Part shown: piece after piece, positions 1 to 62,053 of the stretch
Position numbering within the stretch: position 1 is the first letter of the stretch
How the letters are laid out: every line of letters begins with the position of its first letter
Assembly: GCA_900617105.1 (NCBI GenBank)
Contig: UYFQ01000027.1
Location: 1 to 64,000, forward strand
Reading direction: 5' to 3'
Length of the DNA: 64,000 nt
From: Hydrurus foetidus
Lineage: Eukaryota
Position numbers and translations under genes: made by a program
The notes under the pieces: model-generated
The model's database searches: none
Told to the model about the DNA's origin: nothing
Seen by the model: the letters and a program-made list of their open reading frames with translations, nothing else

Positions 1-95
1 TCAGAACGAGGCGAAGCTCTTGAAAAATTTTTCTGAGCAGGGGTTATCGATCTCCATTGACTTTCAGTGAGATTTACATCGATAAGTGATTAGAC

Positions 96-3000
96 ATGTC
101 ATCACCACCTAACCCAAACCCTGATCCGAATCCGGACGAAGAGGAGATTGCACGTCTGGCAGCTTTAGCCGCGCTCAACGAGTCGACTATCTCAATGTCG
201 AACTCGCTGTTCCCAGCTTTCCCCTCGACGATGCAACTCCAGGGTGAGGTGTTCGTCCTCAGGCATAACTTCATTGATGAAGCTGATGCGACTGAGTTCT
301 ACGAACAGGCTCAGAGGTACCCGTTGATGAAGCTAACCGATTGCATGCAGAAGCAGGCAATCGAGTTACTTAATTTCAGGATCATGATCGATCCTGAATT
401 TAACATCATCGATAGACGACAACGCCATGATTGGCAGACTAAATTGTCGGTACTTCAGGTAGCCAAACTGATAATAAAGTACTTCTCTCCAAATGGTTTG
501 GGAGAATGTACTCTGGCAGAGAGCTTTAGCCAAGTTCCCTTCCATTATCAGATCGCTAACCACGATCATGAGAATGCCACATTCGTACGTTACAACGAAC
601 TTGTGAGCACTTATGAGAGGTCTAAGGGACCATTATCAGAGACTCAGCATGCTGAGCTCATATTGATTTTGGAGAAGCGCCTAGCCAAGGGTAGTCAAAT
701 CCAACAGGATTACCTGAAAGCGAAAGCTGCTGACAACACTCCACCTCATACGTGGTATTCGACTATGCTACGCATTGGTCAGGTTCTTGCCAAGGCTAGG
801 GCAATGATGAACCTCATCAAAAGCTATGGCAACCCGGACACGGTGTACTCGTTTCCTGCATCAGCAGTTCCACCAGACGTTGGTAAGAGGGAGACGAGTA
901 GAGCGAGTGCTAAAGCACCCTCACCTACACCCTCCGCTTCGTCGAGATCAGTCACTGCTACTGTGCGTACCCCTAGCTCGTACGTTCCGACGCAGCACGG
1001 ACTCTCTGTCCGTGCTTCCACGGAAGTACCGCTCGTACCGATGTTTCGTCCGTGCCGGTCGTGCGGAGCTACGTCGCACAATTTGGCAGACTGCCCCATA
1101 CTGTACTACTCCGACTCCAACACGAATCACCAAGTTGAGTGGGAGAGTTCTACAGTGGGGATGGCTTGGGCCGCGGTGGGGTACTCTGAATGGCAACTCA
1201 ACCTCGTCCTTCCGGGATACGAGGAACGAGTTCAGTTCTACCCCAGAGGTTCTAAACCTTACTTGATGTGTAACGACAACAAGCGCGCCAAGAACAGCCA
1301 TGGTTCTGGAAACAACTCCAACACCTCGGATGGTTCAGATCGTTCCAACCAGGGTCAAGGAGGAAACTCCCAGAACCAATCTGGTTATGGTAACCAGGGT
1401 AACCAGGGGGGTGGTAGAGGTAAGCAAAGGGGCCATCAAAACCCCAATGCGAACCAATACCAGGGCCGTGGGTCCGGCGGTAAGGGTAAATACAACCCCC
1501 CGCAGGGACACAACCCTCCTCCCAACACTCAGCCGGGACAACACCAGGGTAAGAACCTTGCCCATGACTGTGTGGCTGCCACATTCGATGATGATGTCTT
1601 TAATCTGACTGATGATCATCTCGAAGTGCAGCCACTTGTACCTATTCGTGAAGAATTCTTACATACCCCTTCCACCCTCGCTTCTCACCACCTTAACGTT
1701 ACGGTTATTGTGCAGGATAAGGACAGGACAGGCCCAGCTAGCGAGCTGCGCGCCGCGGGAAAGGCCGTAATGGATACGGCCAATTATTCAGACAATTTTA
1801 TTTCATATGACATGATTGAAAAATTAAATGCTACTCACTTATGTTATCCTGCTCTTAAAGCCATAACTGTTTGCAGCGGTCTCGATGGCCAATGCTATCT
1901 AAATAACGAAATTTGCGATTTAAAAATCCTTTTTCATTCTTACGATGGTGAATGCCATAGCATCAGCCTACCCATGAGGGTCAATCGGAAAACCGACATC
2001 GACATTTTATTTAGCCGTGAAACGGTAAATAAGTATGATTTTTGGACGTTAACTCCGTTTGCATTCGGCATTTCTCCTGAGCTAAGTGCTGAGAATAAGA
2101 GAAAGAGCGATGCTCGCAGACGCGAATTCGAAAGAAAAGAAGCTTTGGATAAACTCGATCCGTTGTTTCAACACAAATATACGCGTCGTATGATAGCGTT
2201 GGGTACCGAACCTGATACAGCCGTAGTCGAGTCTTTAACACCTCACTACGACAAGCTGAAATATCCAGGCGGTAAACCACCCTCTAAAAAGAGAGAAACA
2301 CACGGATCTTCCGAGTATCCAAACAAGAAGAGCATATTGCATGGTCAATCTTCTTCGAAGAGCAACGTCTCTTGTGTCCATACAATGTCGACATGTAACG
2401 ATACTCAGATGGAGATCGAGGGAGTAGCTACCCAAGATCCCTGTGGTGTTGTAGGTTGTGAGCGACTGAATAGTGTCACTACTATTCTCGCAAAACGTAC
2501 GGGTGATACACCGCACCTAGGTGGCGACCAGATTCCCACCCCTACAAACACTTCTGAGGACTCTGATACCTTAGACTATGTCACTGAGCCTTTATGGCCC
2601 AGTGGTGTCGCACTCTCAGTTGACGAGATTGACGATGGCAAGATAGATACGTTTGCCCCCTTCTTGGCGGAGAAACCTAGTCAAGATGACTTGCCCAAAG
2701 GGCCAGAGGATTTCCTCAAAGAGATTACCTTTGAAGGAGATGAAAGCTTTCAAAGGAAGCTCCGAGAGCTCTGTTCTGAATATTCAGACATCTTCAGTGA
2801 TCAATTAGCTGAGAAACCAGCGTCACTTAAACCCTTTGAGATTAACATCCCACTTGAGTTGTGGGAAAAAGACGAAAACCGTACGCCGGTACGTCCCCAG
2901 TCATCAACAAAAGAGGTTGCTCTCAAAGAAAACCTTGACGAGATGCTTGCATCAGGGGTTATAGAGCGATCAGATGCCGCTTATTACAGTCATCCTGTAA

Positions 3001-3593
3001 TAGTAACTAAGTCACCCGGTAAATTTCGAACCTGCATCGATTACCGGCCACTTAATAGGTGTCTTAAGCCGGCCTCATTCCCGTTACCAAATATCAAACA
3101 CCTCTTTGAGAGGATCGGTAATAAAAAACCGGATATTTTTGGTGTGATGGATTTAACCGCTGGTTACCATCAAGCACCGTTACACCCCGCACACCGCATT
3201 TTTACGGCATTCATATGCTTTGCGGGGGTATTTCAGTTTACGAGACTGCCCTTTGGTCCGTGTCGAGCCCCCTCTTACTTTCAAGAGCAGATGGTAACGG
3301 CGGTCCTCTATGGCCTTATCTATCATTGTTGCGAGATGTATCTCGACGATTGTATAGTATATGGCAAGGGTGAAGCAGAGTTTCTTACTAACTTGAAAAA
3401 AGTTTTTGCAAGATTTAGACTTAAGGGTCTAAGACTCAAAGCTAAAAAATGCCGTTTCGGCCTTCCACGTATTGAATACGTTGGCAGAGTCGTTGACAAA
3501 GATGGTTTATCCATGTCAAAAGAGAAGATAGAAACAGTTTTAAACTTTTCTATACCTAAAAATTTAACCTTACTCAGGTCATTTTGGGTTTAG
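96..3593 (+). CDS. Gypsy Gag-Pol, N-terminal part (Gag with CCHC zinc knuckle, aspartic protease, reverse transcriptase)
   Basis: Zinc knuckle CRSCGATSHNLADC; protease-like VMDTANYSDNFIS; RT motifs FRTCIDYRPLN, DLTAGYHQ, RLPFG, YLDD, YVGRVV. The frame breaks at RSF (3582-3590). Confidence 0.93.
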   Translation: MSSPPNPNPDPNPDEEEIARLAALAALNESTISMSNSLFPAFPSTMQLQGEVFVLRHNFIDEADATEFYEQAQRYPLMKLTDCMQKQAIELLNFRIMIDPEFNIIDRRQRHDWQTKLSVLQVAKLIIKYFSPNGLGECTLAESFSQVPFHYQIANHDHENATFVRYNELVSTYERSKGPLSETQHAELILILEKRLAKGSQIQQDYLKAKAADNTPPHTWYSTMLRIGQVLAKARAMMNLIKSYGNPDTVYSFPASAVPPDVGKRETSRASAKAPSPTPSASSRSVTATVRTPSSYVPTQHGLSVRASTEVPLVPMFRPCRSCGATSHNLADCPILYYSDSNTNHQVEWESSTVGMAWAAVGYSEWQLNLVLPGYEERVQFYPRGSKPYLMCNDNKRAKNSHGSGNNSNTSDGSDRSNQGQGGNSQNQSGYGNQGNQGGGRGKQRGHQNPNANQYQGRGSGGKGKYNPPQGHNPPPNTQPGQHQGKNLAHDCVAATFDDDVFNLTDDHLEVQPLVPIREEFLHTPSTLASHHLNVTVIVQDKDRTGPASELRAAGKAVMDTANYSDNFISYDMIEKLNATHLCYPALKAITVCSGLDGQCYLNNEICDLKILFHSYDGECHSISLPMRVNRKTDIDILFSRETVNKYDFWTLTPFAFGISPELSAENKRKSDARRREFERKEALDKLDPLFQHKYTRRMIALGTEPDTAVVESLTPHYDKLKYPGGKPPSKKRETHGSSEYPNKKSILHGQSSSKSNVSCVHTMSTCNDTQMEIEGVATQDPCGVVGCERLNSVTTILAKRTGDTPHLGGDQIPTPTNTSEDSDTLDYVTEPLWPSGVALSVDEIDDGKIDTFAPFLAEKPSQDDLPKGPEDFLKEITFEGDESFQRKLRELCSEYSDIFSDQLAEKPASLKPFEINIPLELWEKDENRTPVRPQSSTKEVALKENLDEMLASGVIERSDAAYYSHPVIVTKSPGKFRTCIDYRPLNRCLKPASFPLPNIKHLFERIGNKKPDIFGVMDLTAGYHQAPLHPAHRIFTAFICFAGVFQFTRLPFGPCRAPSYFQEQMVTAVLYGLIYHCCEMYLDDCIVYGKGEAEFLTNLKKVFARFRLKGLRLKAKKCRFGLPRIEYVGRVVDKDGLSMSKEKIETVLNFSIPKNLTLLRSFWV

Positions 3594-5536
3594 CGAACTA
3601 TTTTCGACAGTTTGTACCAATGCATTCCACTTTGGTTAAGCCAATGCAGGATATGATTGATCACTCTGCTCCGAGACGTTCTGCTGTAGTTTGGACTCAA
3701 AAGAGCACCAACTCATTTGTTGACACAAAGATTGCTATATCTCGTTGTCCATTAATGTACTTCATTGATGACAATAAGTTAGACATCCGCTTGTATACAG
3801 ACGCATCCGACTTTGGTATCGGTGGAGTCTTATTCCAAGTTGTTGGTGCCATTTGGCAACCAATTGCTTTCATTAGCAAATCGTTGACACCCACACAAAT
3901 AAGGTGGTCTACGATACAAAAAGAGGCTTATGCCATCTTCTTTTGTTGTACACAACTCGATTATCTAATCAGAGATCGTACGTTCACTATCCATACGGAT
4001 CATTTGAACATAACATATATGAAACAAAATCCTACCTCAATGGTGGCGAGATGGTTCATTGCTATGCAAGAACTAGATTTTACCGTGGTATTCGTACCCG
4101 GTACTTCGAATGTTTTGGCAGACGCACTGTCAAGGCTTTGTCCTAATCTGACAGAAATTGCTCTGCCATTACGAACAGAAGAATTGGAATTACTTCCTAC
4201 TTCATCATCGTCTTTCACTGTATCAGCTCTGACGGTCATAGAACCAGCTTCAGACGATCAGTTAGAATACATTCAAATGTGCCACAATGCAATTGTCGGT
4301 CACAACGGCGTAGACCGTACCCTTACTCGGTTGTTTAGTTTACAACAAGTATGGAAACACATGAAACAACATGTACGTACGTTCATACAGAACTGTCCGT
4401 GTTGTCAAAAGTTGAGTGCAAAAGATCCTAAGATCAATGCGTCTCATTTTGCAACTTCAAATTATGCTATCTTCGATACGCTAAATGTTGACTATATTGG
4501 TCCATTTCCTGACAAAGGTTATATCCTAGTCATCATCGATACATTCACACGATGGACAGAATTGTTCTGGTGTGCAGACGCAGATGCTAAATCAGCAGCT
4601 GACTGTTTGCTTGCGCATTTTGGTCGATTTGGATCACCAAATATGATTAGATCTGATCGAGGATCACATTTCGCAAATGAATTGATCAAAGAATTCTTAG
4701 ATCTTTGTGGAACACCACATAATCTCACCCTTGCTTACTCGAAACAAGAGAATGCAATTGTTGAAAGAGTCAACAAAGAGGTGAATAGACACTTAAGAGG
4801 TTTAGTTTTTGATAAACAAACCCTTGAGGGATATGCTAAGTCAATCCCATTCGTGCAACGTATCATTAACGGTTCAGTTAATAGACGCACAGGTGTCTGT
4901 CCCGCTCATTTATTGTTCGGGAACAAACTTGATTTGAATCGTGGTATTCTCACTCCACACTTAAGTGTCGGAACACATTCAAGATCAACGTACATATCAG
5001 ATTTGATAAGTGTACAAGACAAAGTACTTGAAACTGCGGTTCAAACTTTGTTAAAAGCGGATGCTAAAAACGCCGCGTCAGCTGAATCAGCGACTGTGTT
5101 CCCCGTGGGGTCATATGTCTTATGCCGATACACTGATCGACCTCCAACTCGATTACATACTAAGTGGCATGGCCCTTACTGTATTGTCTCCTTTAAGGGG
5201 TCCGAGTACGTTCTCGCTAATCTTGTAAATCACAAGACACGAAGTGTTCACGTCAAGAATTTGAAAATATTCAATTATGACCCAGAGGTAGATATACCTG
5301 CTGACACTGCTCGTCGCGATTACATGGAGTTCGTGGTTGAGAAAGTTCTGGGTCACGCTGGTGACACCAAGAAACCGACTACAATGTCGTTCCATGTTAA
5401 ATGGCTCAACTACGATGACTCTCATAATACATGGGAGCCGTGGAAATCACTACGGCTCTGTGAAGCACTCCATGATTATTTACGGGATAACAAAATGAAA
5501 CATTTCATTCCCAGAAACATTGAGACATCAGCCTAA
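3584..5536 (+). CDS. Gypsy Pol, C-terminal part (RT thumb, RNase H, integrase, chromodomain), frameshifted relative to the upstream ORF
   Basis: GLANYFRQFV; RNase H LYTDASDFGIGGVL, TDH and LADALSR; integrase zinc finger (CHNAIVGH...CPCC) and DD35E (VDYIG, SDRG, IVERVNK); GPY motif; chromodomain FVVEKVLGH...FHVKWLNYDDSHNTWEP. Confidence 0.95.
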   Translation: MGLANYFRQFVPMHSTLVKPMQDMIDHSAPRRSAVVWTQKSTNSFVDTKIAISRCPLMYFIDDNKLDIRLYTDASDFGIGGVLFQVVGAIWQPIAFISKSLTPTQIRWSTIQKEAYAIFFCCTQLDYLIRDRTFTIHTDHLNITYMKQNPTSMVARWFIAMQELDFTVVFVPGTSNVLADALSRLCPNLTEIALPLRTEELELLPTSSSSFTVSALTVIEPASDDQLEYIQMCHNAIVGHNGVDRTLTRLFSLQQVWKHMKQHVRTFIQNCPCCQKLSAKDPKINASHFATSNYAIFDTLNVDYIGPFPDKGYILVIIDTFTRWTELFWCADADAKSAADCLLAHFGRFGSPNMIRSDRGSHFANELIKEFLDLCGTPHNLTLAYSKQENAIVERVNKEVNRHLRGLVFDKQTLEGYAKSIPFVQRIINGSVNRRTGVCPAHLLFGNKLDLNRGILTPHLSVGTHSRSTYISDLISVQDKVLETAVQTLLKADAKNAASAESATVFPVGSYVLCRYTDRPPTRLHTKWHGPYCIVSFKGSEYVLANLVNHKTRSVHVKNLKIFNYDPEVDIPADTARRDYMEFVVEKVLGHAGDTKKPTTMSFHVKWLNYDDSHNTWEPWKSLRLCEALHDYLRDNKMKHFIPRNIETSA

Positions 5537-5879: not shown

Positions 5880-6087
5880 TGTGGTCGGACCGGCTATACC
5901 GGGCCTACGGGCCGTACCGGACCTTGTCCCGATCCATCCGATCCTACCGCCTACTGTACACATACATCTCTAGCGCAGCTGCTAGCTAGCTCTAGCCTAC
6001 TCGTAGAAGTTATCCTAGCTTCTAGCTCGTAGCCTTGTAACTAATTAACACCTCTCCTCTATCGACCTACTTCCTATCTGGACTACA
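5880..6087 (+). repeat. 3' LTR of the Gypsy element (~208 bp)
   Basis: Starts TGTGGTCGGA right after the PPT and ends TCTGGACTACA (imperfect terminal inverted repeat); Copia coding sequence resumes immediately afterwards. Confidence 0.8.
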
Positions 6088-6092
6088 GCATC

Positions 6093-8639
6093 GTGATGTG
6101 CGTACTGTACGTAGTCTCACGGTTAAATTTCGAACCATACGGTGAACGAGAATGGGGTCCTAGCCCAAGAGAAGCTTTCATAGGTAGAAAGCCAGATGGT
6201 AAAAGAGACTTCAGATGTGCATTTGGAGACTATGTACAGTGCACAGTGGCCAATACAGAGTCGACTCTCAGATCTCGCACAGAAGACTGTGTAGTTATGC
6301 TGCCGCTTGGAAACCGTACGGGTACGGTGAGGATGTTGTCTTTAACTACCGGAAAGCTAGTGAACCGAGATCAATTTATAATCATGCCAATGCCTGAATC
6401 AGTTATTAAAAGATTGAATGCGCTCGCACTAGCAGATGGAAGGGTGATGGGAAAGAGTGAATTGGTGGGAACCGATAACATCAATGAAACAGTCAACGGT
6501 AAAACAGAGGGGTTACCAGAGACGATAGAAACAACCATAAATGAGGGTGTAGACCCATCGATTACACTACTGGATGCGAATTACAACCCTGAGTTGGTAT
6601 ACGAAGAAGCCGGCGACCAGATCGATGAGACTCAACTCGACGAGCCGCATGCGGAAGAGTCCGGACTCGCAGATGATATGATTCCACCACAAACAGTACG
6701 ATTCGAACCGAAGGAAGTAGCGATGGATGACTTGATGACCAGCTTCAGAAAGTTGGCAGTTGGACTACCTCACACAGTATCGGCCGAGACTGTCGATGAG
6801 CAGGGTGTACCGGAGGACTACGGCGAGAACGGTGCAATCGACATGGGAGCGACAGAGGAACCAGTTACAGTGACCTCTACACCCAACACTTACTCAGCAT
6901 ACGGACACAGGGTAGTCCCAAGAGCGGATCTGATGGATATGTTCAGAGGAGACAAACAGACCGCAGCACTACTCACTAGGAACTATGACTCAGCAGGAGG
7001 AGATTGGGGTGAATATGTGATGAACATTTCAGTAAACGAAGCACTGAGGACAAGGGGAAAGGATGCAGAGACAGTGATACAAAAGGAGTTAGGACAGATG
7101 ATCGAGAAGAAAGTCTGGACTCCCGTAGACATTCGAGGCCTGTCGCACGGAGAGAAAGCTCGCATCATACGGTCAAGTATGTTCTTGAAGGAGAAATTTT
7201 TGGCTAGTGGTGAGTTCGAAAAGTTGAAAGCGAGATTAGTTGCAGGAGGAGATCAACAGGACAAGACATTGTATGATGATTTGTCAGCTCCTACTGTTGG
7301 GACCAGCTGCGTATTCACCCTGTTGTGCATCGCAGCTCACGAAGGTCGGAAGGTCACTGTGGTAGATATTAGCGGGGCATACTTGAACGCAGACATGAAC
7401 ACTGGGCTAACAGTTCATATGCGATTAGACAAGAGCATGACAGGCATGATGGTGAAGCTGTCACCACAGTACGAGAAGTACATGGACGCCAGAGGATGTG
7501 TTGTGGTGAGGTTGGACAAAGCGCTGTACGGATGCGTGGAGTCAGCAGCACTGTGGTATGAGAACCTCAGGGAGAGCCTGAAGAAACTTGGATACACACC
7601 GAACGCTATAGACACATGCGTATTCAATAAGCGCAACGAGAACGGCGTACAATGCACTATCGCTGTGCACGTGGACGACTTAATGATTACTAGCACAGAC
7701 TCAGACATGATCGAGTCGCTCGCTGTAGGGCTGGCGAAGAGATACGGAGATATCACTCGCAAGGACGGCCCGATCGTGAACTACCTAGGAATGGTGTTCG
7801 ACCTGACTGTACGTGGAGTAGCTAAGGTGACGATGACGGGGTATGTAGATGACATGCTGAAAGAAGTGGGGACGAGCAAGGGAGCGCGTACCCCGGCGAC
7901 AGAGGGTCTCTTTGAGGTGAGACCGGATGCACTCACGGTGAGTGAGGGACTGAGGGTGATGTTTCACAGACATGTGGCTAAGATGCTATACCTGGCGAAG
8001 CGAGCCAGACCGGACTGTCTGACTGCGGTCGCATTTCTTGCCACGAGAGTGACCAAGTGTACAGTTGACGACCTAGCGAAGCTCGATCGCCTTATGAGAT
8101 ACGTATGGGCGACTCGGGAGAGAGGAATAGTGTTTACACCTGGAGCGTCAGGGATTGTTGTGAGTGTCCTTATTGATGCAGCATATGGAGTCCACGCAGA
8201 CGGGAGGTCCCATACGGGGAGCTGCATCGTAGTGGGCGATAGAGGAGCAGTTCACTGCAAATCTTCCAAGCAACAGATTGTAACGAAGTCGAGCACGGAA
8301 GCTGAGCTGGTGGCTCTGTCCGACTCCGCGAATCAGGCACTTCACGTGAGAAGCTTCATCATCGCACAAGGACACGTGTGTGGCCCTGTCATCATACACC
8401 AAGACAACATGTCCTGCATGGCGCTCATCGACCGGGGACGGTCAGGAGCAGAGCGCACGAGACACATCTCAATCAAGTATTTCTGGTTGAAAGAGAGGGT
8501 GGATATGGGTGAGGCGAAGGTGAAGCACCTCGGGACAAAGGACATGTATGCGAACATGTTGACGAAGCCACTCCAGGGAGCACAGTTCAAGACGGAGAGA
8601 AAGGGCGTCACAGGGTGGCCGGACAAAGATTTAGAATAG
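6093..8639 (+). CDS. Copia Pol fragment (integrase C-terminus, RT, RNase H); 5'-truncated by the insertion, so the GTG is not a real start
   Basis: VLYVVSRLN...SPREAF...RCAFG (end of integrase); KLKARLVAGG, VDISGAYLNA, LDKALYG, HVDDL, YLGM, RPD; RNase H IDAAY, KSSTEAELVA, QDN, RTRHI, ANMLTKPL. Confidence 0.93.
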   Translation: MMCVLYVVSRLNFEPYGEREWGPSPREAFIGRKPDGKRDFRCAFGDYVQCTVANTESTLRSRTEDCVVMLPLGNRTGTVRMLSLTTGKLVNRDQFIIMPMPESVIKRLNALALADGRVMGKSELVGTDNINETVNGKTEGLPETIETTINEGVDPSITLLDANYNPELVYEEAGDQIDETQLDEPHAEESGLADDMIPPQTVRFEPKEVAMDDLMTSFRKLAVGLPHTVSAETVDEQGVPEDYGENGAIDMGATEEPVTVTSTPNTYSAYGHRVVPRADLMDMFRGDKQTAALLTRNYDSAGGDWGEYVMNISVNEALRTRGKDAETVIQKELGQMIEKKVWTPVDIRGLSHGEKARIIRSSMFLKEKFLASGEFEKLKARLVAGGDQQDKTLYDDLSAPTVGTSCVFTLLCIAAHEGRKVTVVDISGAYLNADMNTGLTVHMRLDKSMTGMMVKLSPQYEKYMDARGCVVVRLDKALYGCVESAALWYENLRESLKKLGYTPNAIDTCVFNKRNENGVQCTIAVHVDDLMITSTDSDMIESLAVGLAKRYGDITRKDGPIVNYLGMVFDLTVRGVAKVTMTGYVDDMLKEVGTSKGARTPATEGLFEVRPDALTVSEGLRVMFHRHVAKMLYLAKRARPDCLTAVAFLATRVTKCTVDDLAKLDRLMRYVWATRERGIVFTPGASGIVVSVLIDAAYGVHADGRSHTGSCIVVGDRGAVHCKSSKQQIVTKSSTEAELVALSDSANQALHVRSFIIAQGHVCGPVIIHQDNMSCMALIDRGRSGAERTRHISIKYFWLKERVDMGEAKVKHLGTKDMYANMLTKPLQGAQFKTERKGVTGWPDKDLE

Positions 8640-8705
8640 AATATTATTCCATAACAATATGCTAGTTTAGTTATTGCGTACAAATGAGTCGTAGCATGAA
8701 GGGTG

Positions 8706-8928
8706 TGTTGGATATATCTGAGTTCATGACACGAACACATTGAGTGTACTTATGCATCCGTACGGTGTACGGGTTAATTTGTGTGTGTATGCACGTACGT
8801 GCTTGTGTTGCGAAGATGTATGGACCTGAACAATGACCGTGCTTCTATGGTAGCGAAGAGTTTGAATTTGTTTCTGGGTGAAATCGACTCGTTGCTTTCT
8901 GTGGATGAGAAGCACAGTCGAATTAACA
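8706..8928 (+). repeat. Putative 3' LTR of the Copia element
   Basis: Begins TGTTGG after gaagggtg and ends AATTAACA at 8928. An alternative end is TATCA at 8948. The 5' copy is outside the window, so this is unconfirmed. Confidence 0.6.
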
Positions 8929-9200
8929 AGTGATCATCGATACTATCAATCCCATTTCACGAGTCTTGATAACTGAGCCAGTGTCCTCAAGGTCCACGTT
9001 CCGTCCGAGCAGAGTCCGGAATTCAAAGGTTCTTCAACACCGAGTCGATCATTTGTCATTTGTGTTTGTGTGAAATCAAGTTCGAGTTGTTCCAATGAGT
9101 ACTTCAACCACACTAGGGTTACGCTCTTCACTATTGTGCATGAACGACCAATAGAGCAGAAGTGACGAGCCCGCCATCCCGAACGATTGTGGGAAATTCC

Positions 9201-10753
9201 ATGTCGCTTCATGACGAAGTGGCTTTTGAAGAGATTGATAGCGCGTCGCAAAAGTTTACAGCTACAGTGAGAGAAAACTGTGGGGCTTTATTAAGTCGTC
9301 AATGGCACATAGTTTTGCCGGTTGCAATGTTTGCGTACGCAATTTTCCAGTCCTCTGTTGCTTACTTCGATGTCTGCACCGGTCGCGAACCTATTGAGCC
9401 TTGGACTCAACAAGTAATTGTCGCCATCGCTGGGTGCTTCATGCTCAGTGTTGCATATCATTCCCTCATCGGAATTTATATGGGTGCATACACCAAAAAC
9501 AACAAAGAGCTATCTTATCCCCGTGCCGTTTACGCAGCTGCTGCAACTGTTTCACTTGTCGCGGGGATATCAGCGTGTATCAAAATAAACGACCGTTATC
9601 ACTCGATATGCAAAGATGCTCTTGGCATGGAAACTTTCTCGTCACAATGGCCAGAGTGGCTCGTTGATGTTCCTTTGTTAGGATACATTACTGTGGCGCT
9701 AGAAGACAAATATGAGTTGGCCAGAGAGGATATCATCCTGATTTGCATGATGTTTAGCATGATATTCTTCGGTAAGAGGCGATCAGTTTTTGATTTTTGA
9801 TCAAAGAGGGAACACGTAGAATCTGCTGCTTCAATTTGTAGGTGATAGTTGTTCTCTAATCTTTTAGAATGACGAACAAAGCCTTCACAATCGAAATGTC
9901 GAATTTGATATTCTCCCACGAAGGTTTCTTGGCAAATCTGACGACAGACAAGTTCACTGGATCTGTTTTGCTATCAATAAGCGCCTGCTGTATTATGGGT
10001 AACTTCTACGTCGCCTTCAAGTCTTCGAGAGATACACAGGCTTTGGCGATAGCTGCCGCCAAAAAAGGTAATATACATCTGCAATGAAGTGTTTGCGCAT
10101 ATTATCCAGGATGCTCCATCTTCTCAATTTTCCTATCTGTTGATTCTTCAGGGCGGAATAACAGATCTGCTGCAGCGGCTAGTGCCCAGTGGGCGTTTGA
10201 ACGAATGATGATGAAGGGGCGTTTGTCCTGGTTGTTGATTTATGTGCTGCCTCTCTTTCCGATAACATACCTGCTGGGATACGTGGGCGTGTTCGACAGA
10301 GATCAAGTCATCGCGTCTAACATGATTTGCAGTGTGTTTGCAAAGCTGGTGTTTGTGGGCATATTGTCATTGGAGTCTCTGTTCGTTCAGCTTGCTCAAC
10401 GGAACAATGACGTACGCAAGAGGGCTCTCAACAACGCCACAATTGAAGGGTTCTCATTGCTACGTGGCGGCCCATCGATGGCCAGCAAGACCGCCTATGG
10501 GACAAATCTGAACCCCAAATATGACAGCCTTAATCAAGTAAATTCTGTTGAAGATGAAGTTAATTTCAGCCTGGTAAAAGTTCAAAATGAAGCAGCCCTG
10601 GGGTATAAGAACGGGACAAAAGGGGGCAATCTCGGAGGAAAAGGAAATTTAAAGTCCGCCTCTGACGGCCCTCTGAATGGCGGCAAATCATCTGTAATCA
10701 AAGCGGAGCCAGGCAAAGGAGTGTCAACTGGAAAGCTGGCCATTAATATCTAA
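9201..10753 (+). CDS. Microbial (type-1) rhodopsin-like protein, 8 predicted TM helices, ~438 aa; exons 9201-9771, 9924-10067, 10152-10753
   Basis: Two GT-AG introns splice in phase 1 into one ORF. Helix C QWPEWLVDVPLL matches BR RYADWLFTTPLL; helix F LPLFPITYLLG matches WSAYPVVWLIG; helix G CSVFAKLVF matches LDVSAKVGF, with the Schiff-base Lys codon at 10343. There is one extra N-terminal hydrophobic helix. Confidence 0.85.
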
Positions 10754-11613
10754 GAAAAGAAAAGGACACATTAGAGTCAGTTAGTTGAGTAGTTACAACA
10801 GAAATGGAATGTTTACTTGTTGCGATGTGAAAAAATGTCAATTATTGTGTGAGGACTGCATATAGAGTTAGATGGTAGGTGGTGAGTGAGTCTAAAATCT
10901 TTCCTCCTTGTTCTTATTTTCACACTACATGTTGAGAATCTGAATTTTTAGCATACCTGAGAGAGGCATCGGATGCCAACAGTTTGCAAACGATTTAGCA
11001 AGTTAAAAAATTATTTAGACCAAGCTGTCGTTTTTCTACCGCAAAAATGCCATGGCTCATTTAAGGACCCTAAGATATTTACAACGGAACAGCAGCAGCA
11101 GGGTGACAAACTTCTCCTACACTACAGTACGGCACTTGCGCTGTAAGTACTGAACGAAACCCGCCGACGTGAGTATTATACCGTATTGTACCCAGCGCGG
11201 CGGTTTCAACGGCGCGTCTGTATGTGCCTCGATCGATCTGATCTCCCGTTCCGTATTGGGTCCGTGAAACCTGATCGTGATCAAGCAATGCATTTATAGT
11301 CTTCAAATCTCATCACTTCCGACTAAAAAGGCAACGAGTTCTGAAAATCTAAGATAACCAGCTAGTAGATGAACGACTGCTTTCAGACAAGCCATGGATG
11401 GAGCTCTTTTTGGTGGAGAACATCATCAAAGAAGCTAGATCGCTGAAATTCCAACTGATAGGCACCTTCCGGGACATCTTTTTGTCTTACAGAGACAATT
11501 AATACAGATTTATAATAGTGTGGTAAAGTGCTTCTTTCCAGAATATCTCGATGGCATTGGGTAATCAAGACCACCTGAGGAGTTGATCCTACAAAGAATA
11601 CTTCTGATAGAAA

Positions 11614-36524
<24,911 letters not shown>

Positions 36525-37754
36525 ACCTGAGCCTGACAAGAACAAGAACAAGAGCAAGTGCCACTATTGCACTGCACCACGGCACGACCCATGACCATGA
36601 CCATGACCCACCATGGCATCACGTCATGTGCTGGCTGTGGCGAGCTGAGGTACTCAGTGCTGTGCTTTATATTCAAGGACATCAGTGATGCGATGGGCGG
36701 CATCCCGTCCCATCCCTCCCTCGTGTTACTCTGCCACTCTAAATAACCAACCTCATTGCTGTCGCTTCGTTTGAGTGACTCACCCGTACACCCAGACCAG
36801 CACCAGCGATCAGGAAGGGCTTCAAGTAGACAGTGCGTGATCTATGCCGACAAAGTTTCCTTCACCTCGCTGCATTACATTATATACCACACATCACTTT
36901 ACTTTTATTGGACGTTCTGTTGAATCGCTTAGAGGGGTTCTGTCAGGTGACGTACTCGCTATTCTGTACAGTATAGCTACCATACGCACGCAACAGTAAT
37001 AGACACAAAGGAAAGGAGGATCCATCCTTCGCTACAACACTACACTACACTACACTATACTACACTACAGTACAGTAAACTACACTATACTATATGATGA
37101 TTATTTAGAATGAGCGTGGCGCACTGAGTTTAGTTCACACTCATTTAGCAGAAGTCTAATCAGCACAGTTCCGTATATGCCTCAGCAAATCATAATCGCT
37201 ATTACTTTATCTTTCATTTCTTTTCTATATGATCGATGTTACATGCGATAGAATCGTACATCCAGTTCATTCGATCGACATCGAAGTACTCTACTTGACT
37301 TTATTTAACAAAAATCAACCAGTCGCAACAAGAACCCTCCTTTTTACAGACCAGCCAATTTGATCCATCGTTGATCAAGCGAAATGCGTCGTAGCTCAAT
37401 CAGTGATATTTGACGAAATACCTTTATCACTGATGGGTTTGTCATAGCAGTCTGCAATTACAGCTACGATACTGCAACGCGTCTACTACTGATACATTTA
37501 TAGTGGAACCACCACCGACGCTCAATCAATACTTCATTCCTTCAAAAGTCGAATGACAAGATGATGGAGAAATAAGAAATAAGAAATGTGAAGGAAAAGA
37601 TTTCCGGAGAACACAAGAACCGGATAGAATCTGGTCAACGTAACTTCGTAACTTTCTTCAGTTTTATATCTTTTGTCTTTTGTGGCAGTCTCCCCTCCCA
37701 GTAGGATTCTGCTCTACATCATAAATAATACGCCTTCTGTACAACGTACACGCA

Positions 37755-39749
37755 ATGGCGAGGTGCCACGCCATCAGAAAGCTGCTTTGCTGCGAATGTT
37801 ATCTTTCCCGATGCTTCATCGAGTCAGCAAGGAAATTTTATGCGGGTATATCACATCCGAGAAGTTTTTTGATTTTTAATGTGATCTGCATCATGCAGAC
37901 TGTTCCTGCGTTGTACTACTACATATCATTCTTCAAGAGTGGTTTCTACATCGTTAACTCCACCGGTATGGCACCCGTTTGGGGCTGCACTATTGGAGCC
38001 ATCGCAACAGCGATTGTGACCACCGCTCTGGTGCCAATACCACCCCAAACTATCACCGCTACTTTCTGTGCAGCGGTCATCATATGGGAATTTCTTGTTT
38101 GCGGTTCGCTATTTATAGCAGCAGTCTGTCTAGCGATTATGTCAGACTACCACGGATTTGTCTGGAGCGTAATAGGATCAATCAGCACGGGTTGCGCGGG
38201 ATGCTTTCTTCTGTGGTTGGGTCTCGAAGTAATTAAAAGACGAAAAGTTGAGAAATACGAGAATCATCTTGATAATGCTCCGTTTCGACCTCCATTTATG
38301 TCCTCTATGTCTGACAATATGAGCAGCGATGGTAGATCAAGCAAGTCTGATGTTGTCATTCAGATTGGAGAAAGAGACCGAAGCTCCTTGGAAAGAAGCT
38401 CGTTAGGAACCCCTGAGAGAAGTGAAAGAAGTAGAGAAAGAAGTAGAGAAAGGCTCTCTGAACCGTCTGATGTGCCTAAACATCACATATTTCGATCTAG
38501 TAAACTCGACTCCATACCGCAGCCCATCGGACCTAGTGATGACTTTTTCCTGGACGATATTTACAGCCAGGATAGAAAAGCTGTGAAAACCACAACCGAG
38601 TCTGAGCCAAATGCAGTACAGAGACCTTCCTGTTTTGGGGCCGTCAAGTTTTGTGTGATACAGATTTTACTCTGGGCAATATTATTTGTTTTTTCTATCA
38701 TCCCCGCAGGTTTTGGCATACAGCAGGCTATTCAACTATCAGAGCTTATAAAATACGGAATCCCAGGAACACTATACTCTATTCCTTCTGCACAGAACTC
38801 TACTATTTCTCTTAACATGCATATTTACTGCCTCGGTCCGAAGACATCTCGACCTACCTTGCTATTCGAAGCCGATAAAGGGACAAGCGGTTTTTCATTC
38901 TTCAACATGCAGAGCACTCTGTCTCCGACTTGGAGAGTGTGTACGTACGACAGGGGGGGATACGGGTGGTCCGCTCTGCCCCCATTGGGGTCGTCCACCC
39001 CCACTGCCGTCGCTTTCAGGCTACATGCATTGCTTGATTCTGCTGGTGAGGGACAGTCATCAAGTGGGATTGTTCTGATCGGTCACGGAACAGGAGGGGA
39101 ACTAGCACAGTTGTACGCACTGACCTATCCGAGCCAAGTATCCGGTCTAGCGATCTTAGACGGATATCCTAACATCGATAGATTGATGGGCCTCTCCACA
39201 AACAGCATCTATCAGTCCAACCTGAAGAAATGCGGTGATCTTCAGATATCTAGAGCACTCGAACCTGTCGCCTTAATGAGGGCTGTGACTGACGTGTTCG
39301 ATGTAAAGACCAAGAACAGAGGGGACCAGTTTGTACCCCAGTCACAATTGAATAAGTATGGTTCCACTCAGACTAATGGGAAATATTGGGCAGCGCAGTA
39401 CAGCGATCTCTGCGTCAATGCTGGTGCAGTGACTGCCCACACAGACCTGCTGAATCAAGCCGCTGAGAGACGGGTGGTATCGGCGTATTTTAACGGGAAT
39501 GCCGTGGCGTGGCCCTCCCTCCCGGTCAATCGTCCTGTGCTGGTCGTGTCTGCAGGTAGCAGCATCAGCGGCTCTGATGCTCAATCCATGACGTACTTCA
39601 GACAAGCAGCGCTCTACAACATGACCCTCTCCTCCTCCCAACAGTCCAAATGGATCGTGTGTGCCTCTTGCGACCACTCACTAGCCGTGGACCGGGACAG
39701 TACGGCTGTATCTGGCTATATTGACCAGCACTTCAGCAACTACTTCTGA
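37755..39749 (+). CDS. Intronless multi-pass membrane protein with a C-terminal alpha/beta-hydrolase fold
   Basis: About 5 hydrophobic segments, then MHIYCLG...PTLLFEA, RVCTYDRGGYGWS, IVLIGHGTGG, YPSQVSGLAILDG, PVLVVSAG and CDH. Confidence 0.85.
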   Translation: MARCHAIRKLLCCECYLSRCFIESARKFYAGISHPRSFLIFNVICIMQTVPALYYYISFFKSGFYIVNSTGMAPVWGCTIGAIATAIVTTALVPIPPQTITATFCAAVIIWEFLVCGSLFIAAVCLAIMSDYHGFVWSVIGSISTGCAGCFLLWLGLEVIKRRKVEKYENHLDNAPFRPPFMSSMSDNMSSDGRSSKSDVVIQIGERDRSSLERSSLGTPERSERSRERSRERLSEPSDVPKHHIFRSSKLDSIPQPIGPSDDFFLDDIYSQDRKAVKTTTESEPNAVQRPSCFGAVKFCVIQILLWAILFVFSIIPAGFGIQQAIQLSELIKYGIPGTLYSIPSAQNSTISLNMHIYCLGPKTSRPTLLFEADKGTSGFSFFNMQSTLSPTWRVCTYDRGGYGWSALPPLGSSTPTAVAFRLHALLDSAGEGQSSSGIVLIGHGTGGELAQLYALTYPSQVSGLAILDGYPNIDRLMGLSTNSIYQSNLKKCGDLQISRALEPVALMRAVTDVFDVKTKNRGDQFVPQSQLNKYGSTQTNGKYWAAQYSDLCVNAGAVTAHTDLLNQAAERRVVSAYFNGNAVAWPSLPVNRPVLVVSAGSSISGSDAQSMTYFRQAALYNMTLSSSQQSKWIVCASCDHSLAVDRDSTAVSGYIDQHFSNYF

Positions 39750-58384: not shown

Positions 58385-61300
58385 TCACGAGGAATGTGTG
58401 AATACGAAGGTCCAGGCAACCACAGTATTTTTCTGCCACTGTTTTCTTTGAAGGCTGTACAAGAAACTTGCGTTTGAATGCGCGGTCTGAGAGCTATTAC
58501 CAAGGTGAGTTAGATGGGAATCTAGTTTACTAGCATCCGATGGACAAGGAGCCGGGGAAGGGGAGGCAGACGAGGATCTCCCAGACAACGCTGAAGAGGA
58601 GGAAGAGGGAAAGATGTCGTCAGCATACGTTCTCTTCCTGCTATATCCTGTAGAAGCAAATATCAAATCTTCAAAAGGAATGATTTCCGTGAGACAGAAT
58701 CCGTGCACAGTTGCGAGTCGCTCTACCTCCCACTCTAATGCTTGGGACAACAGAAGTGTCACCATCACCCTGGGACCTCGTACCCTTCCATTCCTGATTC
58801 CCACCCCCACCCTTCCTTCTTCCTGACTCTCCAGCTCTGAGTCACTGCTGCTGTAATTTTGATTTCTGGAGAGCAATGCAGTCTTAAGAACTTTTTTGAG
58901 AACGTTCTTTGCGCTTCGGAACACTCCGTCCAGAAGGTGCATGTGTCTTCCTCTGGCAACCCAGTGGGTATCGAAATCGGATGATCTGCCGCTCTTGCTT
59001 CTCTTAATCTTCTCTTTGCTAGGGCTTTCTATGGGATCTGTTTGAGATCCTGCACTGTCACTGTCACTGTCACTGCCATTGTCAAAATCACCCTTGCTGC
59101 TGCTGCTGCTCTCAGTGCTGTCTGAGAACTCTTCTGCTGACAGCTGAGGCCCCTTGACAGCACTGCCACTGTCACCATCCATTGACTTCTGCTCACTACT
59201 GACTGTGGAAATTTTAGGAAATCCAGATTTTCCCCTACGTGCATTGGAAGCATCTGACCCCGTGTTCAGGGCGTCAGCGAATGGAAAGTTGAAGATGACC
59301 GTGTCGAATGCTTCCCCCTGGAAGTCGGACATGAGGACATTTGTCGCATCTACTTGATACATAACCCTGTGTCCACTCTCCTCCTCTACTGCTTTAGAAG
59401 GAGATCCACTATCACCGCGCTCTTCAGCAATGTGCACCACTTTGCTATTGCTACTATTGCTGCTGCTATTGCTGTCTGTTGAAAGAGAAATACCCTTTCT
59501 GTCTCTTGACGCTCTAGAAGTACTGCCAGTGATAAACCGCACGTTCTCTTCTGCTCCAGCATACTTTCTGAACAATGACGATTGCGTCTCAAATGAAGTG
59601 GCGATGATATGCAGTGGTACGGAATGTGGCAGATCCACAATCTGGTGTCTTGCTGTGCCTTCAGGGGTGACATCACTGCAAAGTATCTCTCGCCCTCTCC
59701 CTCTCCCTACTCCTCTCTGCCCATCTGATGAACGCTTTCCCTCCTCAATCGCCACCAAATTCTCATTTTCATCTTCATCTGTACGTACTATTCTGTCGAC
59801 TCGTCTGTTGTGAAGTGAGAGCCTCTCCTGCTGTAGCTTGATGAGCGAAGCGGAGAAGGAAATATCTCCATCCCCCAGAATAAGAATGCGAATTCTCTTA
59901 GGAACATTACCTTCTTCTTCTTCTTCTTCTTCTATTCCTAACATTCCTACTGACGAGTCACACGTACTTGAAGAACTATCCTTCCAGTTAGTCCCCTTTA
60001 TGGAGCCCTGTATACTCTCAAAGAAACTGCAGTAGAGAAACTCAGTGGTGGGAGACACGCCATGCGCACTGCTGCCAGTGCTAGTGTGAGTATGTTTTGT
60101 GGAGCTCAGGAAATTCTGGGTTAACTCCACAGCAGCACTTATCCTAGGGTCTGTGAAGAATGATCCCTTTGTGTCCTGTTTAATGTCCCTGTCTTTGCCT
60201 TCCCCACTCCCATCTCCATCCTCGTCTTTATTACCCCCAACCTCATCCATATCTCCTATTAGTCCAGTCCTGCAGCCCATGAAAGAGAGAATCTCATCGC
60301 AAGCATCACTTGTGCGATAGACATATTCCGATTTATCCCCAGTATTCATAATCCTGTTGGTCCTTGTACTTCTGGTTCTTCCTTCATTTCCTGCACTCTC
60401 ATCCTTCCAGACAACAGTGTTAGCAAGTAAGTAGCGTATGAAATCAAGACCCTCTCTATAGACAGATGTGCTAGATGCAGAACCTTCTCCGTTGAGTGTT
60501 CTGATCGCTTGTAATGTAAGGAGATGCAGTGATTTATCGAGCACTGTTCCATGCAATATATTCAAACAAGTTATCACGTCCAAGTTGCTGTAGCTTTTCT
60601 GCCATGAAGAATGCTGCTTGAATTCGGTTAGAACAGCATGCACATTCTTCCAGGATGGAGAGTTCGCCATAGCGGTGATAAATATTTCTAAGGTTATAAA
60701 GTTTGAAACTCCTGAAGATTTCATATTCACATTATTTGCCACTGCATCAACATGAGGAGAAGAAGCAGTAGGGTTATAAAGTTTTGAAGCGTTCACTGCC
60801 CTTGAAATTGGAGAACAGAAATCATCGTTGAAGTGCAGATGTAGAGAATTCAGAAGTGACGCAGAGCTTGGAGTACCATCGATTGCATCGACGTTCTGAG
60901 CAGTCATCACACTGAGTGAAAAGACATCAAGAAGTCTTCTCGAGACGTTCATCTCTTTGATCTTCTTGAAGAGTTGGGCTGATTGTCCACTTCTTCTGTT
61001 GGGTTTCATTTGCTGCACTGAATGTACCATCATCATGAGAACATTTAAATCAACAGCACCTGGTGGTGAAGAAACGTCACTGGTGAAGTCGACACACTTC
61101 TTTCCATCACTGGAACAATCCGCAGAGAGCCCAACATTTATACCCACGAAAGCGGTGTTGGTCGATTCTGAATATGACCCGTCACATTTATCTACTTTGC
61201 TACCATCCAAGCATCTAGAGCTTGACGAATGAAGTCGTTTCATTTCGTTTTTGCTAGTCACATCATGTAAGGAAATTAAGTCACCAAAGCGAGAATGATC

Positions 61301-61603
61301 CCTTTTTTCTAGTAACTTCTCCATGAGACCAAGCAATTCAGTGCTCCCTACAGGTCCCTCGACAACTTCCAAATATTCTGTTATTTCCCTAGTCCCTTTA
61401 TCCCGACGGGATCGCACGACTATTTCAGTCATGCGGTCGATTCTGCGCCTAAATTCGCTGCATCCATCAGAGTTCACTTCGAGAGGATAAATCCTCCGCA
61501 CAGCAAAGTGCTTCCTTGAGTGTGACGGAAACCTCCATAACCTGTTGCAAGAAATCGTATCGTAGAAGAACAGGTGCCACGCAGAGAGGACCAGGTAGAG
61601 CAT
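58385..61603 (-). CDS. Large intronless protein with a BMT5/DUF2431-like (25S rRNA uracil-N3 methyltransferase-type) domain; start uncertain
   Basis: Motifs RILILGDGDISFSASL, IIATSFET...LFRKY, VMYQVDAT, FDTVIFNFP, HLLDGVFRSA, VMVTL...WEV, PF...GY, separated by Ser-rich insertions. Confidence 0.75.
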   Translation of the reverse strand: MLYLVLSAWHLFFYDTISCNRLWRFPSHSRKHFAVRRIYPLEVNSDGCSEFRRRIDRMTEIVVRSRRDKGTREITEYLEVVEGPVGSTELLGLMEKLLEKRDHSRFGDLISLHDVTSKNEMKRLHSSSSRCLDGSKVDKCDGSYSESTNTAFVGINVGLSADCSSDGKKCVDFTSDVSSPPGAVDLNVLMMMVHSVQQMKPNRRSGQSAQLFKKIKEMNVSRRLLDVFSLSVMTAQNVDAIDGTPSSASLLNSLHLHFNDDFCSPISRAVNASKLYNPTASSPHVDAVANNVNMKSSGVSNFITLEIFITAMANSPSWKNVHAVLTEFKQHSSWQKSYSNLDVITCLNILHGTVLDKSLHLLTLQAIRTLNGEGSASSTSVYREGLDFIRYLLANTVVWKDESAGNEGRTRSTRTNRIMNTGDKSEYVYRTSDACDEILSFMGCRTGLIGDMDEVGGNKDEDGDGSGEGKDRDIKQDTKGSFFTDPRISAAVELTQNFLSSTKHTHTSTGSSAHGVSPTTEFLYCSFFESIQGSIKGTNWKDSSSSTCDSSVGMLGIEEEEEEEGNVPKRIRILILGDGDISFSASLIKLQQERLSLHNRRVDRIVRTDEDENENLVAIEEGKRSSDGQRGVGRGRGREILCSDVTPEGTARHQIVDLPHSVPLHIIATSFETQSSLFRKYAGAEENVRFITGSTSRASRDRKGISLSTDSNSSSNSSNSKVVHIAEERGDSGSPSKAVEEESGHRVMYQVDATNVLMSDFQGEAFDTVIFNFPFADALNTGSDASNARRGKSGFPKISTVSSEQKSMDGDSGSAVKGPQLSAEEFSDSTESSSSSKGDFDNGSDSDSDSAGSQTDPIESPSKEKIKRSKSGRSSDFDTHWVARGRHMHLLDGVFRSAKNVLKKVLKTALLSRNQNYSSSDSELESQEEGRVGVGIRNGRVRGPRVMVTLLLSQALEWEVERLATVHGFCLTEIIPFEDLIFASTGYSRKRTYADDIFPSSSSSALSGRSSSASPSPAPCPSDASKLDSHLTHLGNSSQTAHSNASFLYSLQRKQWQKNTVVAWTFVFTHSS

Positions 61604-62053
61604 CTTTTCTTACGGAGCCTGGCAGCGTCTACTGCGCTGCCTGGCGCAGCCAACAATTGGCGTTAGCTGATGATGATAGCGTGGTGAGATTCCAGACAGA
61701 TTGGACATATGTATGCAGTATGCGTGCGAAGTGAGCTGTGAGCTGCATGCTGCAAGCTGCATGACTGAAAGTCTCCTGCCATTTCTGTTGCATGATTCGA
61801 CACCGATTTCTGTCATATTTTTCGGAACACATACGGAATATTCTAAAAGTTGTACGCAAAAGCGAATTTTAGTCGAAGAAAGCAAAAGAAAACTCTTCAC
61901 GTCTCACGACATGAAGACAAAGCGAAAAGCGACAAACTCATCACTCATCGGTCACAGTGCTGGACGGATATTTATTCAGCGATGAACAGTTGGGAGAGCA
62001 GTAACGAGTTCTGTAGCGACGAAGCAATCATTTGAACCGCTCATGATTTTATT

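Follow-up and report, generated by a model that had tools for sequence, protein, structure and literature searches.

A transcribed gene for a predicted eight-helix rhodopsin without an effector domain in Hydrurus foetidus, a likely descendant of rhodopsin-histidine kinases

The window analysed here, the first 64,000 nucleotides of contig UYFQ01000027.1 in the Hydrurus foetidus assembly GCA_900617105.1, carries a rhodopsin gene between retroelements and a kinesin gene. Upstream lie a Ty3/gypsy-type element, whose two overlapping frames include a chromodomain integrase, then a Ty1/copia-type pol ORF (90-5536 and 6045-8639), and a high-copy repeat (8600-9040) with a contig depth of 500-50,000, compared to 127 for the rhodopsin gene (X5); this repeat, probably an LTR, ends about 100 bp before the start of the rhodopsin transcript. 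Downstream, a multi-exon kinesin gene (PF00225; 11300-16000, + strand) is transcribed from about 11304 and contains an AGAT microsatellite (~12915-13080). It is followed by a 14.4-kb satellite of ACTGT/ACTAC-like pentamers with a strong C skew (16028-30432), in which a 492-bp higher-order repeat recurs in 18.4 copies with 92% matches. Farther along are ORFs for an alpha/beta hydrolase (37725-39749), a BMT5-like methyltransferase (58385-61609, - strand) and a VPS9-domain protein (62036-63643).

The rhodopsin gene consists of three coding exons on the + strand, of which exon 1 (9201..9771) encodes the N-terminus, TM0, TM1-TM3 and most of TM4, exon 2 (9924..10067) the end of TM4 and TM5, and exon 3 (10152..10753) TM6, TM7, a linker helix, the tail and the stop codon (10751-10753). 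Joined, the exons amount to 1,317 nt and encode 438 aa with a single terminal stop. The introns have GT..AG borders and measure 152 nt (intron 1, 9772..9923) and 84 nt (intron 2, 10068..10151, with an in-frame stop inside). For RNA evidence we used stranded oligo-dT (poly-A) reads with the same species label, from two runs (X7 and X8) that together represent one sample, at about 6% of each run. The joint of intron 1 was found in 56 spliced reads (27 in X7 and 29 in X8) and that of intron 2 also in 56 (40 and 16, respectively), all from a + strand transcript. Each joint is also present in one field contig (X1 for intron 1 and X3 for intron 2), and the former appears in field contig X2 as a loose end. 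The original prediction, which spliced three exons into a protein of about 438 aa, is borne out by these reads, which join both introns exactly. One further field contig (X4; 10041-10257) retains intron 2 unspliced, reflecting either library DNA or intron retention. At position 10153, all or most reads have A for G, a silent difference, and position 9244 is polymorphic in X7 and X8 (Ala15/Glu).

RNA coverage of the gene extends from about 9120 to about 11070. At the 5' end, depth begins in the bin 9120-9223 and is zero in 9016-9119, which places the approximate start of the 5' UTR at 9120 (9120..9200, + strand); at the other end, it fades to zero by 11075 along the 3' UTR (10754..11070, + strand) and is zero at 11096-11303, ahead of the next transcript. 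Among the X8 reads placed on 9900-11300, depth is 44-61 over 10276-10792, that is, through the rhodopsin stop codon, and no onward splice joint past the stop was detected over 9900-11300; the loose ends listed for this interval consist of adapter sequence or fall at intron 1 on its exon-1 side, with 2 further ones outside the list. RNA-seq, which had been proposed as the check on the introns and the 3' end, thus confirms the former and shows reads that pass the stop and fade in the 3' UTR, and the predicted lack of an effector domain holds at the transcript level.

A wrong 3' end, or recent truncation of a kinase rhodopsin that is now decaying, could produce the same appearance, and the position of the gene some 560 bp downstream of the Ty1/copia-type pol ORF fits such an account, as does the field contig X1, which departs from the gene at 10357 and continues in unrelated letters. 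The break in X1 is probably a chimera, because the X2 contig and the X8 reads cross 10357 unbroken. Reads also cross the stop into the 3' UTR, and orthologues at 42-82% identity end in the same kinase-less way, among them P0001, P0002 and P0006. The P0001 cluster holds a complete transcript ORF of 442 aa, and the 12 members of the P0025 cluster are kinase-less, several of them aligning to the last residues. A scan of metagenome loci reduced 48 pattern matches to 2 loci (L001 and L002), in both of which the frame after the linker ends in a stop and no kinase match follows within the only ~990 and ~130 bases available downstream. Furthermore, field contigs from related strains differ from the gene at 24 coding positions, 18 of them silently, which is consistent with purifying selection on the gene. 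We regard the artefact or decay account as largely refuted and leave it hardly any weight. The two metagenome loci belong to a GC-rich organism and have other intron positions, one in TM3 and one just after TM7; the counterion position is Ala in L001 and Glu in L002. Upstream of L002 there is a RING-like zinc-finger gene (judged by eye), so that no synteny is shared with this locus.

None of the three exons, taken singly, gives a Pfam rhodopsin match (0 of 3), so the gene is easy to overlook. The predicted rhodopsin fold was instead recovered through orthologues: P0001 (442 aa), which is 57% identical to the 438-aa protein over 400 aa (E = 1e-159 in the local set), and P0002 (532 aa; 42% identical) score 30.6 and 35.4 bits with PF01036, both above the cut-off of 24.6 bits. 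As a structural proxy for the 438-aa protein, we modelled P0001 from an 81-row alignment that includes kinase-bearing rows, which may have shaped the modelled linker helix. The model (mean pLDDT 80, pTM 0.77) has helices at residues 36-61, 73-101, 110-139, then, after a hairpin, at 158-175, 184-205, 209-251, 255-293 and 299-349, and ends in a disordered tail; all eight hydrophobic segments named in the original prediction map onto these helices. A fold based on an alignment of 5 rows had low quality (pLDDT 48, best Foldseek E 3e-3) and was set aside. A 19-residue hydropathy scan of the 438-aa protein gave 7 peaks, because helix C is amphipathic, and this seven-helix count is overruled by the eight-helix model.

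The best structural match to the P0001 model, TM0 included, is the rhodopsin phosphodiesterase Rh-PDE of Salpingoeca rosetta (PDB 7d7q, 7cj3), which ranks first in Foldseek (7d7q, E = 5.6e-6) and aligns to the model in VIA at Z 24.4 over 269 residues (rmsd 3.1, model range 35-338). Seven-helix rhodopsins align at Z 21-22, starting at model residues 66-74, and the later start of these alignments places the extra helix in the TM0 position of Rh-PDE. These matches to solved rhodopsins (Z 21-24) also support the fold itself, and TM0 sits as in Rh-PDE, in line with the expectation of an extra N-terminal helix as in enzyme rhodopsins; in the 438-aa protein it corresponds to residues 30-55 (9288..9365, + strand). 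Rh-PDE likewise has a straight helix continuing from TM7, as described in an excerpt of PMC7644710, but differs in sequence (13-14% identity) and in its PDE domain, which is found neither in the 438-aa protein nor in any of 95 scanned relatives, and of the 47 PDB sequences that the family profile matches with E no higher than 10, none is Rh-PDE. The basic TM5-TM6 loop and C-terminus (9 and 6 Lys/Arg), both predicted to be cytoplasmic, together with the eight helices and the C-terminal kinases of relatives, point to the canonical membrane orientation. On the predicted outer face, Cys59 in the TM0-TM1 loop (9375..9377, + strand) and Cys137 in the TM2-TM3 hairpin (9609-9611) form a candidate disulfide; equivalents of both cysteines are present in 78 of the 87 relatives that cover both sites.

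The register of the retinal pocket was taken from profile alignments to bacteriorhodopsin-like chains, and positions are named by bacteriorhodopsin numbering (R82, D85, W86, T89, P91, D96, W182, P186, D212 and K216). Lys303, in the last helix (10343..10345, + strand), falls on the Schiff-base position (K216), as originally predicted, and its column contains Lys in 106 of the 109 family proteins that reach it. TM3, or helix C (9645..9698, + strand), provides Gln149 (R82), Glu152 (D85), Trp153 (W86), Asp156 (T89) and Pro158 (P91). The D85 position is Glu in 132 of 144 family rows and the W86 position Trp in 141 of 144, and the P91 and P186 equivalents are kept as well (Pro158 and Pro275). The R82 position is Gln in 107 counted family rows and Arg in 3; the D212 position, Ser299 in the 438-aa protein (10331..10333, + strand), is Ser, Gly or Asn family-wide, with Asp in 4 rows; and the W182 position is Phe, Leu or Met (Leu271). 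The usual rhodopsin residues at these three positions are thus missing from the protein, whereas Arg at the R82 position is highly conserved in nearly all characterised rhodopsin clusters, according to section 10 of PMC13739731. Heliorhodopsins, which have an inverted seven-helix topology, share Glu at 3.45 and Ser at 7.46 (same section) with the 438-aa protein, whose eight predicted helices and basic TM5-TM6 loop and C-terminus point to the canonical orientation.

This mixture of kept and lost positions bears on whether the protein responds to light at all. It might have the rhodopsin fold but bind little or no retinal, acting as a sensor or scaffold that responds to some other cue or as a structural component, given that the R82, D212 and W182 equivalents are lost throughout the family and that heterokont phototaxis is attributed to flavin pigments in the accessible text of PMC2781859. 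We consider this unlikely, because the Schiff-base Lys, the D85-position Glu and the W86, P91 and P186 equivalents have been kept despite divergence of the family to about 20-40% identity, and because HKR2, which lacks the usual carboxylates, is yet responsive to green light, as stated in an excerpt of PMC8815786. Retinal binding by the 438-aa protein is likely on these pocket residues.

Transport of ions, acquired as a light-driven pump or channel after the kinase was shed, would be compatible with the two carboxylates of helix C (Glu152 and Asp156) and the lack of an effector domain, and the Asp156 equivalent occurs in just 7 counted family rows, most of them in the subclade of the query. 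The pocket argues against a classical pump: the D96 position is hydrophobic across the family (Ile163 here), so that a proton donor is lacking, as are the R82 and D212 equivalents, and Asp156 is absent from P0001 (Ala) and P0003. Enzyme rhodopsins are also described as lacking pump and channel activity in the accessible part of PMC12558739, and we find a transport function quite improbable.

Beyond the lysine, TM7 runs on into the cytoplasm as a single helix of about 50 residues in the P0001 model (299-349). In the 438-aa protein, the cytoplasmic part of this helix (10370..10462, + strand) aligns in register with the helix that precedes the H-box in kinase-bearing relatives, keeping the Arg pair and the Glu, with Pro-Leu retained in some members and the His replaced; it is likely a relic of the signalling helix and H-box. 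When the linkers of seven orthologues were combined into a profile, it scored 12.2 against the H-box profile, higher than all 150 of 150 column shuffles (maximum 9.2), with an hhalign probability of 1%. No relic H-box was recovered by single-sequence HMM scores, of which none of 5 was significant: 175 of 200 shuffles scored at least as high as the query, and 13 of 200 did so for P0002, the best of the five. The register match thus weakly suggests an H-box remnant in the linker.

As the original prediction had it, the protein contains no H-box and ends in a tail of roughly 100 aa rich in G, K, N and S; counted after residue 335, the tail comprises 103 aa (G17/S11/K11/N11). The prediction overlooked a conserved motif of 21 residues within this low-complexity tail (residues 357-377; 10505..10567, + strand), which hardly varies among the query, P0001, P0006, P0025 and P0039 and is a candidate docking site. 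The motif is absent from P0002 and L001, and P0032 ends before it; since P0002 and L001 lack it, the motif cannot serve as the output in the whole subclade. No H-box, HisKA, HATPase_c, receiver, cyclase, PDE or bestrophin domain was found in the 438-aa protein, and Pfam gave no domain in exon 3 or in the tails of orthologues.

We then placed the protein among its relatives. Word-based searches gave few of these (2, 6 and 4), whereas the family profile, run against 1.84 billion representatives with an E limit of 0.001, gave 369 matches, of which 150 were listed. From these 150, 95, chosen mostly by length, were scanned with Pfam at thresholds of 1e-5 and 1e-3; kinase-module domains (HisKA, HATPase_c or receiver) were present in 57 of the 95, and cyclase, PDE or bestrophin domains in none. 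An intact H-box motif was found in 50 of the 109 rows that reach helix G, mostly 34-41 residues past the lysine, many of the other 59 being gene models truncated at introns. A named organism was found in three of the 30 clusters consulted, in each case a chrysophyte: Hydrurales sp. CCMP1899 (P0001 cluster), Ochromonadaceae sp. CCMP2298 (P0075) and Epipyxis sp. PR26KG (P0133). No characterised histidine-kinase rhodopsin (HKR) sequence was among the named family matches.

Several members depart from the common architecture. The long members P0037, P0040, P0046, P0072, P0073 and P0115 have the H-box His replaced and are probable pseudokinase rhodopsins. P0050 and P0056 combine an N-terminal RGS domain and a rhodopsin-like domain with a degenerate H-box region, and the tail of P0086 is similar. 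By analogy to helmchromes, which link light to G-protein signalling with LOV (PMC8017926, in the accessible text), the RGS-rhodopsin fusion of P0050 and P0056 could do the same.

We built quick trees of the membrane domains of family members only, without an outgroup. In the 78-row tree, the query falls in a 21-row clade (support 100) that also includes H-box-bearing members. A 54-row tree was obtained by dropping 24 of the 78 rows (5 with long branches, the others without helix G or with short cut tails); here, the query, P0001 and P0002 form a clade (support 99) whose sister is a group of seven rows including P0017, P0019, P0020 and P0023 (support 99), the two together making up a 10-row clade (support 99). 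Four of the seven sister rows have an H-box region and three have long degenerate tails. Elsewhere in the tree, P0043, P0049, P0068 and P0075 form a second kinase-less clade (support 96), which includes a complete transcript ORF of 407 aa (P0043) and a 410-aa gene model from an Ochromonadaceae genome (P0075). Members of this second group, to which P0096 and P0132 also belong, have tails of 96-134 residues past the lysine and no H-box remnant; the linker of the clade scored 2.3 against the H-box profile.

Grouping all seven kinase-less rows was rejected (AU test, p = 1.25 × 10−5), which implies two changes of state, the group having been named after the tree was seen. At least one of the two kinase-less clades represents a loss under any root, and the second appears to have arisen separately on the unrooted tree; for the clade of the query, loss is favoured because its linker aligns in register with the H-box helix. 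The ancestor of the 438-aa protein was therefore likely a rhodopsin-histidine kinase whose kinase part was later lost. The original suggestion that the protein may belong to an uncharacterised algal rhodopsin class needs modification: it is not a class apart but a branch without kinases, nested within the large rhodopsin-histidine kinase family.

The closest known systems are the HKRs (HKR or 2c-Cyclop of Chlamydomonas and Volvox and Ot-HKR of Ostreococcus), which likewise have an eight-helix rhodopsin. Compared with the HKRs as described in the accessible part of PMC12558739, close relatives of the 438-aa protein have the same rhodopsin-HisKA-HATPase_c-receiver order, whereas the protein itself is without kinase, receiver and cyclase, and the chrysophyte family differs in having Gln at the R82 position and no W182 or D212 equivalent. 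It is best considered a variant of the histidine-kinase rhodopsins: the scaffold is theirs and so, probably, is the ancestry, but the kinase that defines them is missing. The Rozenberg et al. 2021 review and the 2022 bestrhodopsin paper reportedly survey eight-helix rhodopsins, which could weaken a claim of novelty. Neither kinase rhodopsins from chrysophytes nor eight-helix rhodopsins without an effector were described in the literature we searched, including the accessible parts of PMC12557545, PMC13436692 and PMC10865886; the 17 uncharacterised rhodopsin clusters of PMC13739731, of which cluster 5 lacks a conserved 7.46 counterion, may include the family. The accessible text of PMC6324907 samples no chrysophyte, and a figure legend of PMC13595923 places 'putative chrysophyte rhodopsins' in a tree without further identification. 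In the main text of a Chrysophyceae preprint (10.64898/2026.10.27.762293), the words rhodopsin, photoreceptor and retinal are all absent.

Taken together, the transcript, the modelled fold, the pocket and the trees lead us to favour, with a confidence that falls slightly short of even, a predicted eight-helix rhodopsin that has likely lost the kinase of its kinase-rhodopsin ancestors and likely senses light on its own, relaying the signal to a separate cytoplasmic partner. In the proposed mechanism, retinal would bind Lys303, with Glu152 (and Asp156) as the counterion; its isomerisation would shift, within a homodimer, TM7 together with the signalling helix that has been kept, and this shift would alter access to the linker and the 21-residue tail motif, where a partner protein would bind. 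Dimers through TM1 and TM7 and a relay from TM7 to the linker have been proposed for Rh-PDE (excerpt of PMC7644710). Signalling in trans, as would hold for the 438-aa protein, is also known from SRII/HtrII and Anabaena sensory rhodopsin, which have no fused effector either and whose seven-helix core matches at Z 21-22; these have seven helices and a dedicated transducer, in contrast to the TM0, the long TM7 linker and the intron-bearing eukaryotic gene seen here. No transducer gene is evident beside the rhodopsin gene, which has a kinesin gene downstream and retroelements upstream.

The main alternative takes up the original idea of heterodimers with kinase-bearing paralogues but reverses the expected effect: the protein would be a light-gated decoy or modulator that pairs with such a paralogue through the shared membrane interface and the signalling helix and, lacking a DHp, damps the kinase or tunes it within higher oligomers. 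The pre-H-box helix register kept by the linker, the kinases carried by the sister clade and the members with a degenerate H-box (P0037, P0040, P0046 and P0072), as expected where inactive partners are used, are in keeping with such a role, and the NeoR/RGC rhodopsin cyclases are obligate heterodimers, as reported in an excerpt of PMC8815786. Yet both partners in NeoR/RGC retain a catalytic domain, the second kinase-less clade has no H-box remnant (score 2.3) and the conserved tail motif would be superfluous in a decoy. No kinase match, and hence no kinase-bearing paralogue, was found within the 64-kb window with five kinase queries, nor was a kinase match found in L001 or L002. As the kinase core is built from two protomers as a dimeric four-helix arrangement (PMC6798134, accessible text), a 1:1 heterodimer would more likely silence than activate a kinase, half of this core being missing. 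A decoy role seems rather unlikely to us.

In the pocket, the chytrid heterodimeric rhodopsin guanylyl cyclases (NeoR) offer a further comparison: of their carboxylate triad, given as E136, D140 and E262 in an excerpt of PMC8815786, the first two are matched by Glu152 and Asp156, but the E262 position is Ser299, Asp156 is absent from P0001 and no cyclase is present, so the full triad is not found here.

More broadly, we put forward, somewhat more tentatively than the reading of this single protein as a stand-alone sensor, that the eight-helix rhodopsin-histidine kinases of golden algae form a large family, so far undescribed and marked by a Gln/Glu/Ser pocket, and that light sensors without a kinase have branched off from it at least twice. 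The gene described here would encode one of these, and its product would signal in trans by means of a vestigial signalling helix and of a new tail motif, which has not been described for eight-helix rhodopsins. A conserved, expressed, effector-free eight-helix form indicates that the module can persist without its enzyme. As the family member that is easiest to express, the 438-aa protein opens the unusual pocket to direct tests, and it lends itself to optogenetic fusions as a natural scaffold free of any enzyme. In chrysophytes, which are abundant mixotrophs capable of phototaxis, photoreceptors have been credited to flavoproteins, according to the accessible text of PMC2781859, so that a two-component family based on retinal would give these algae an additional light input.
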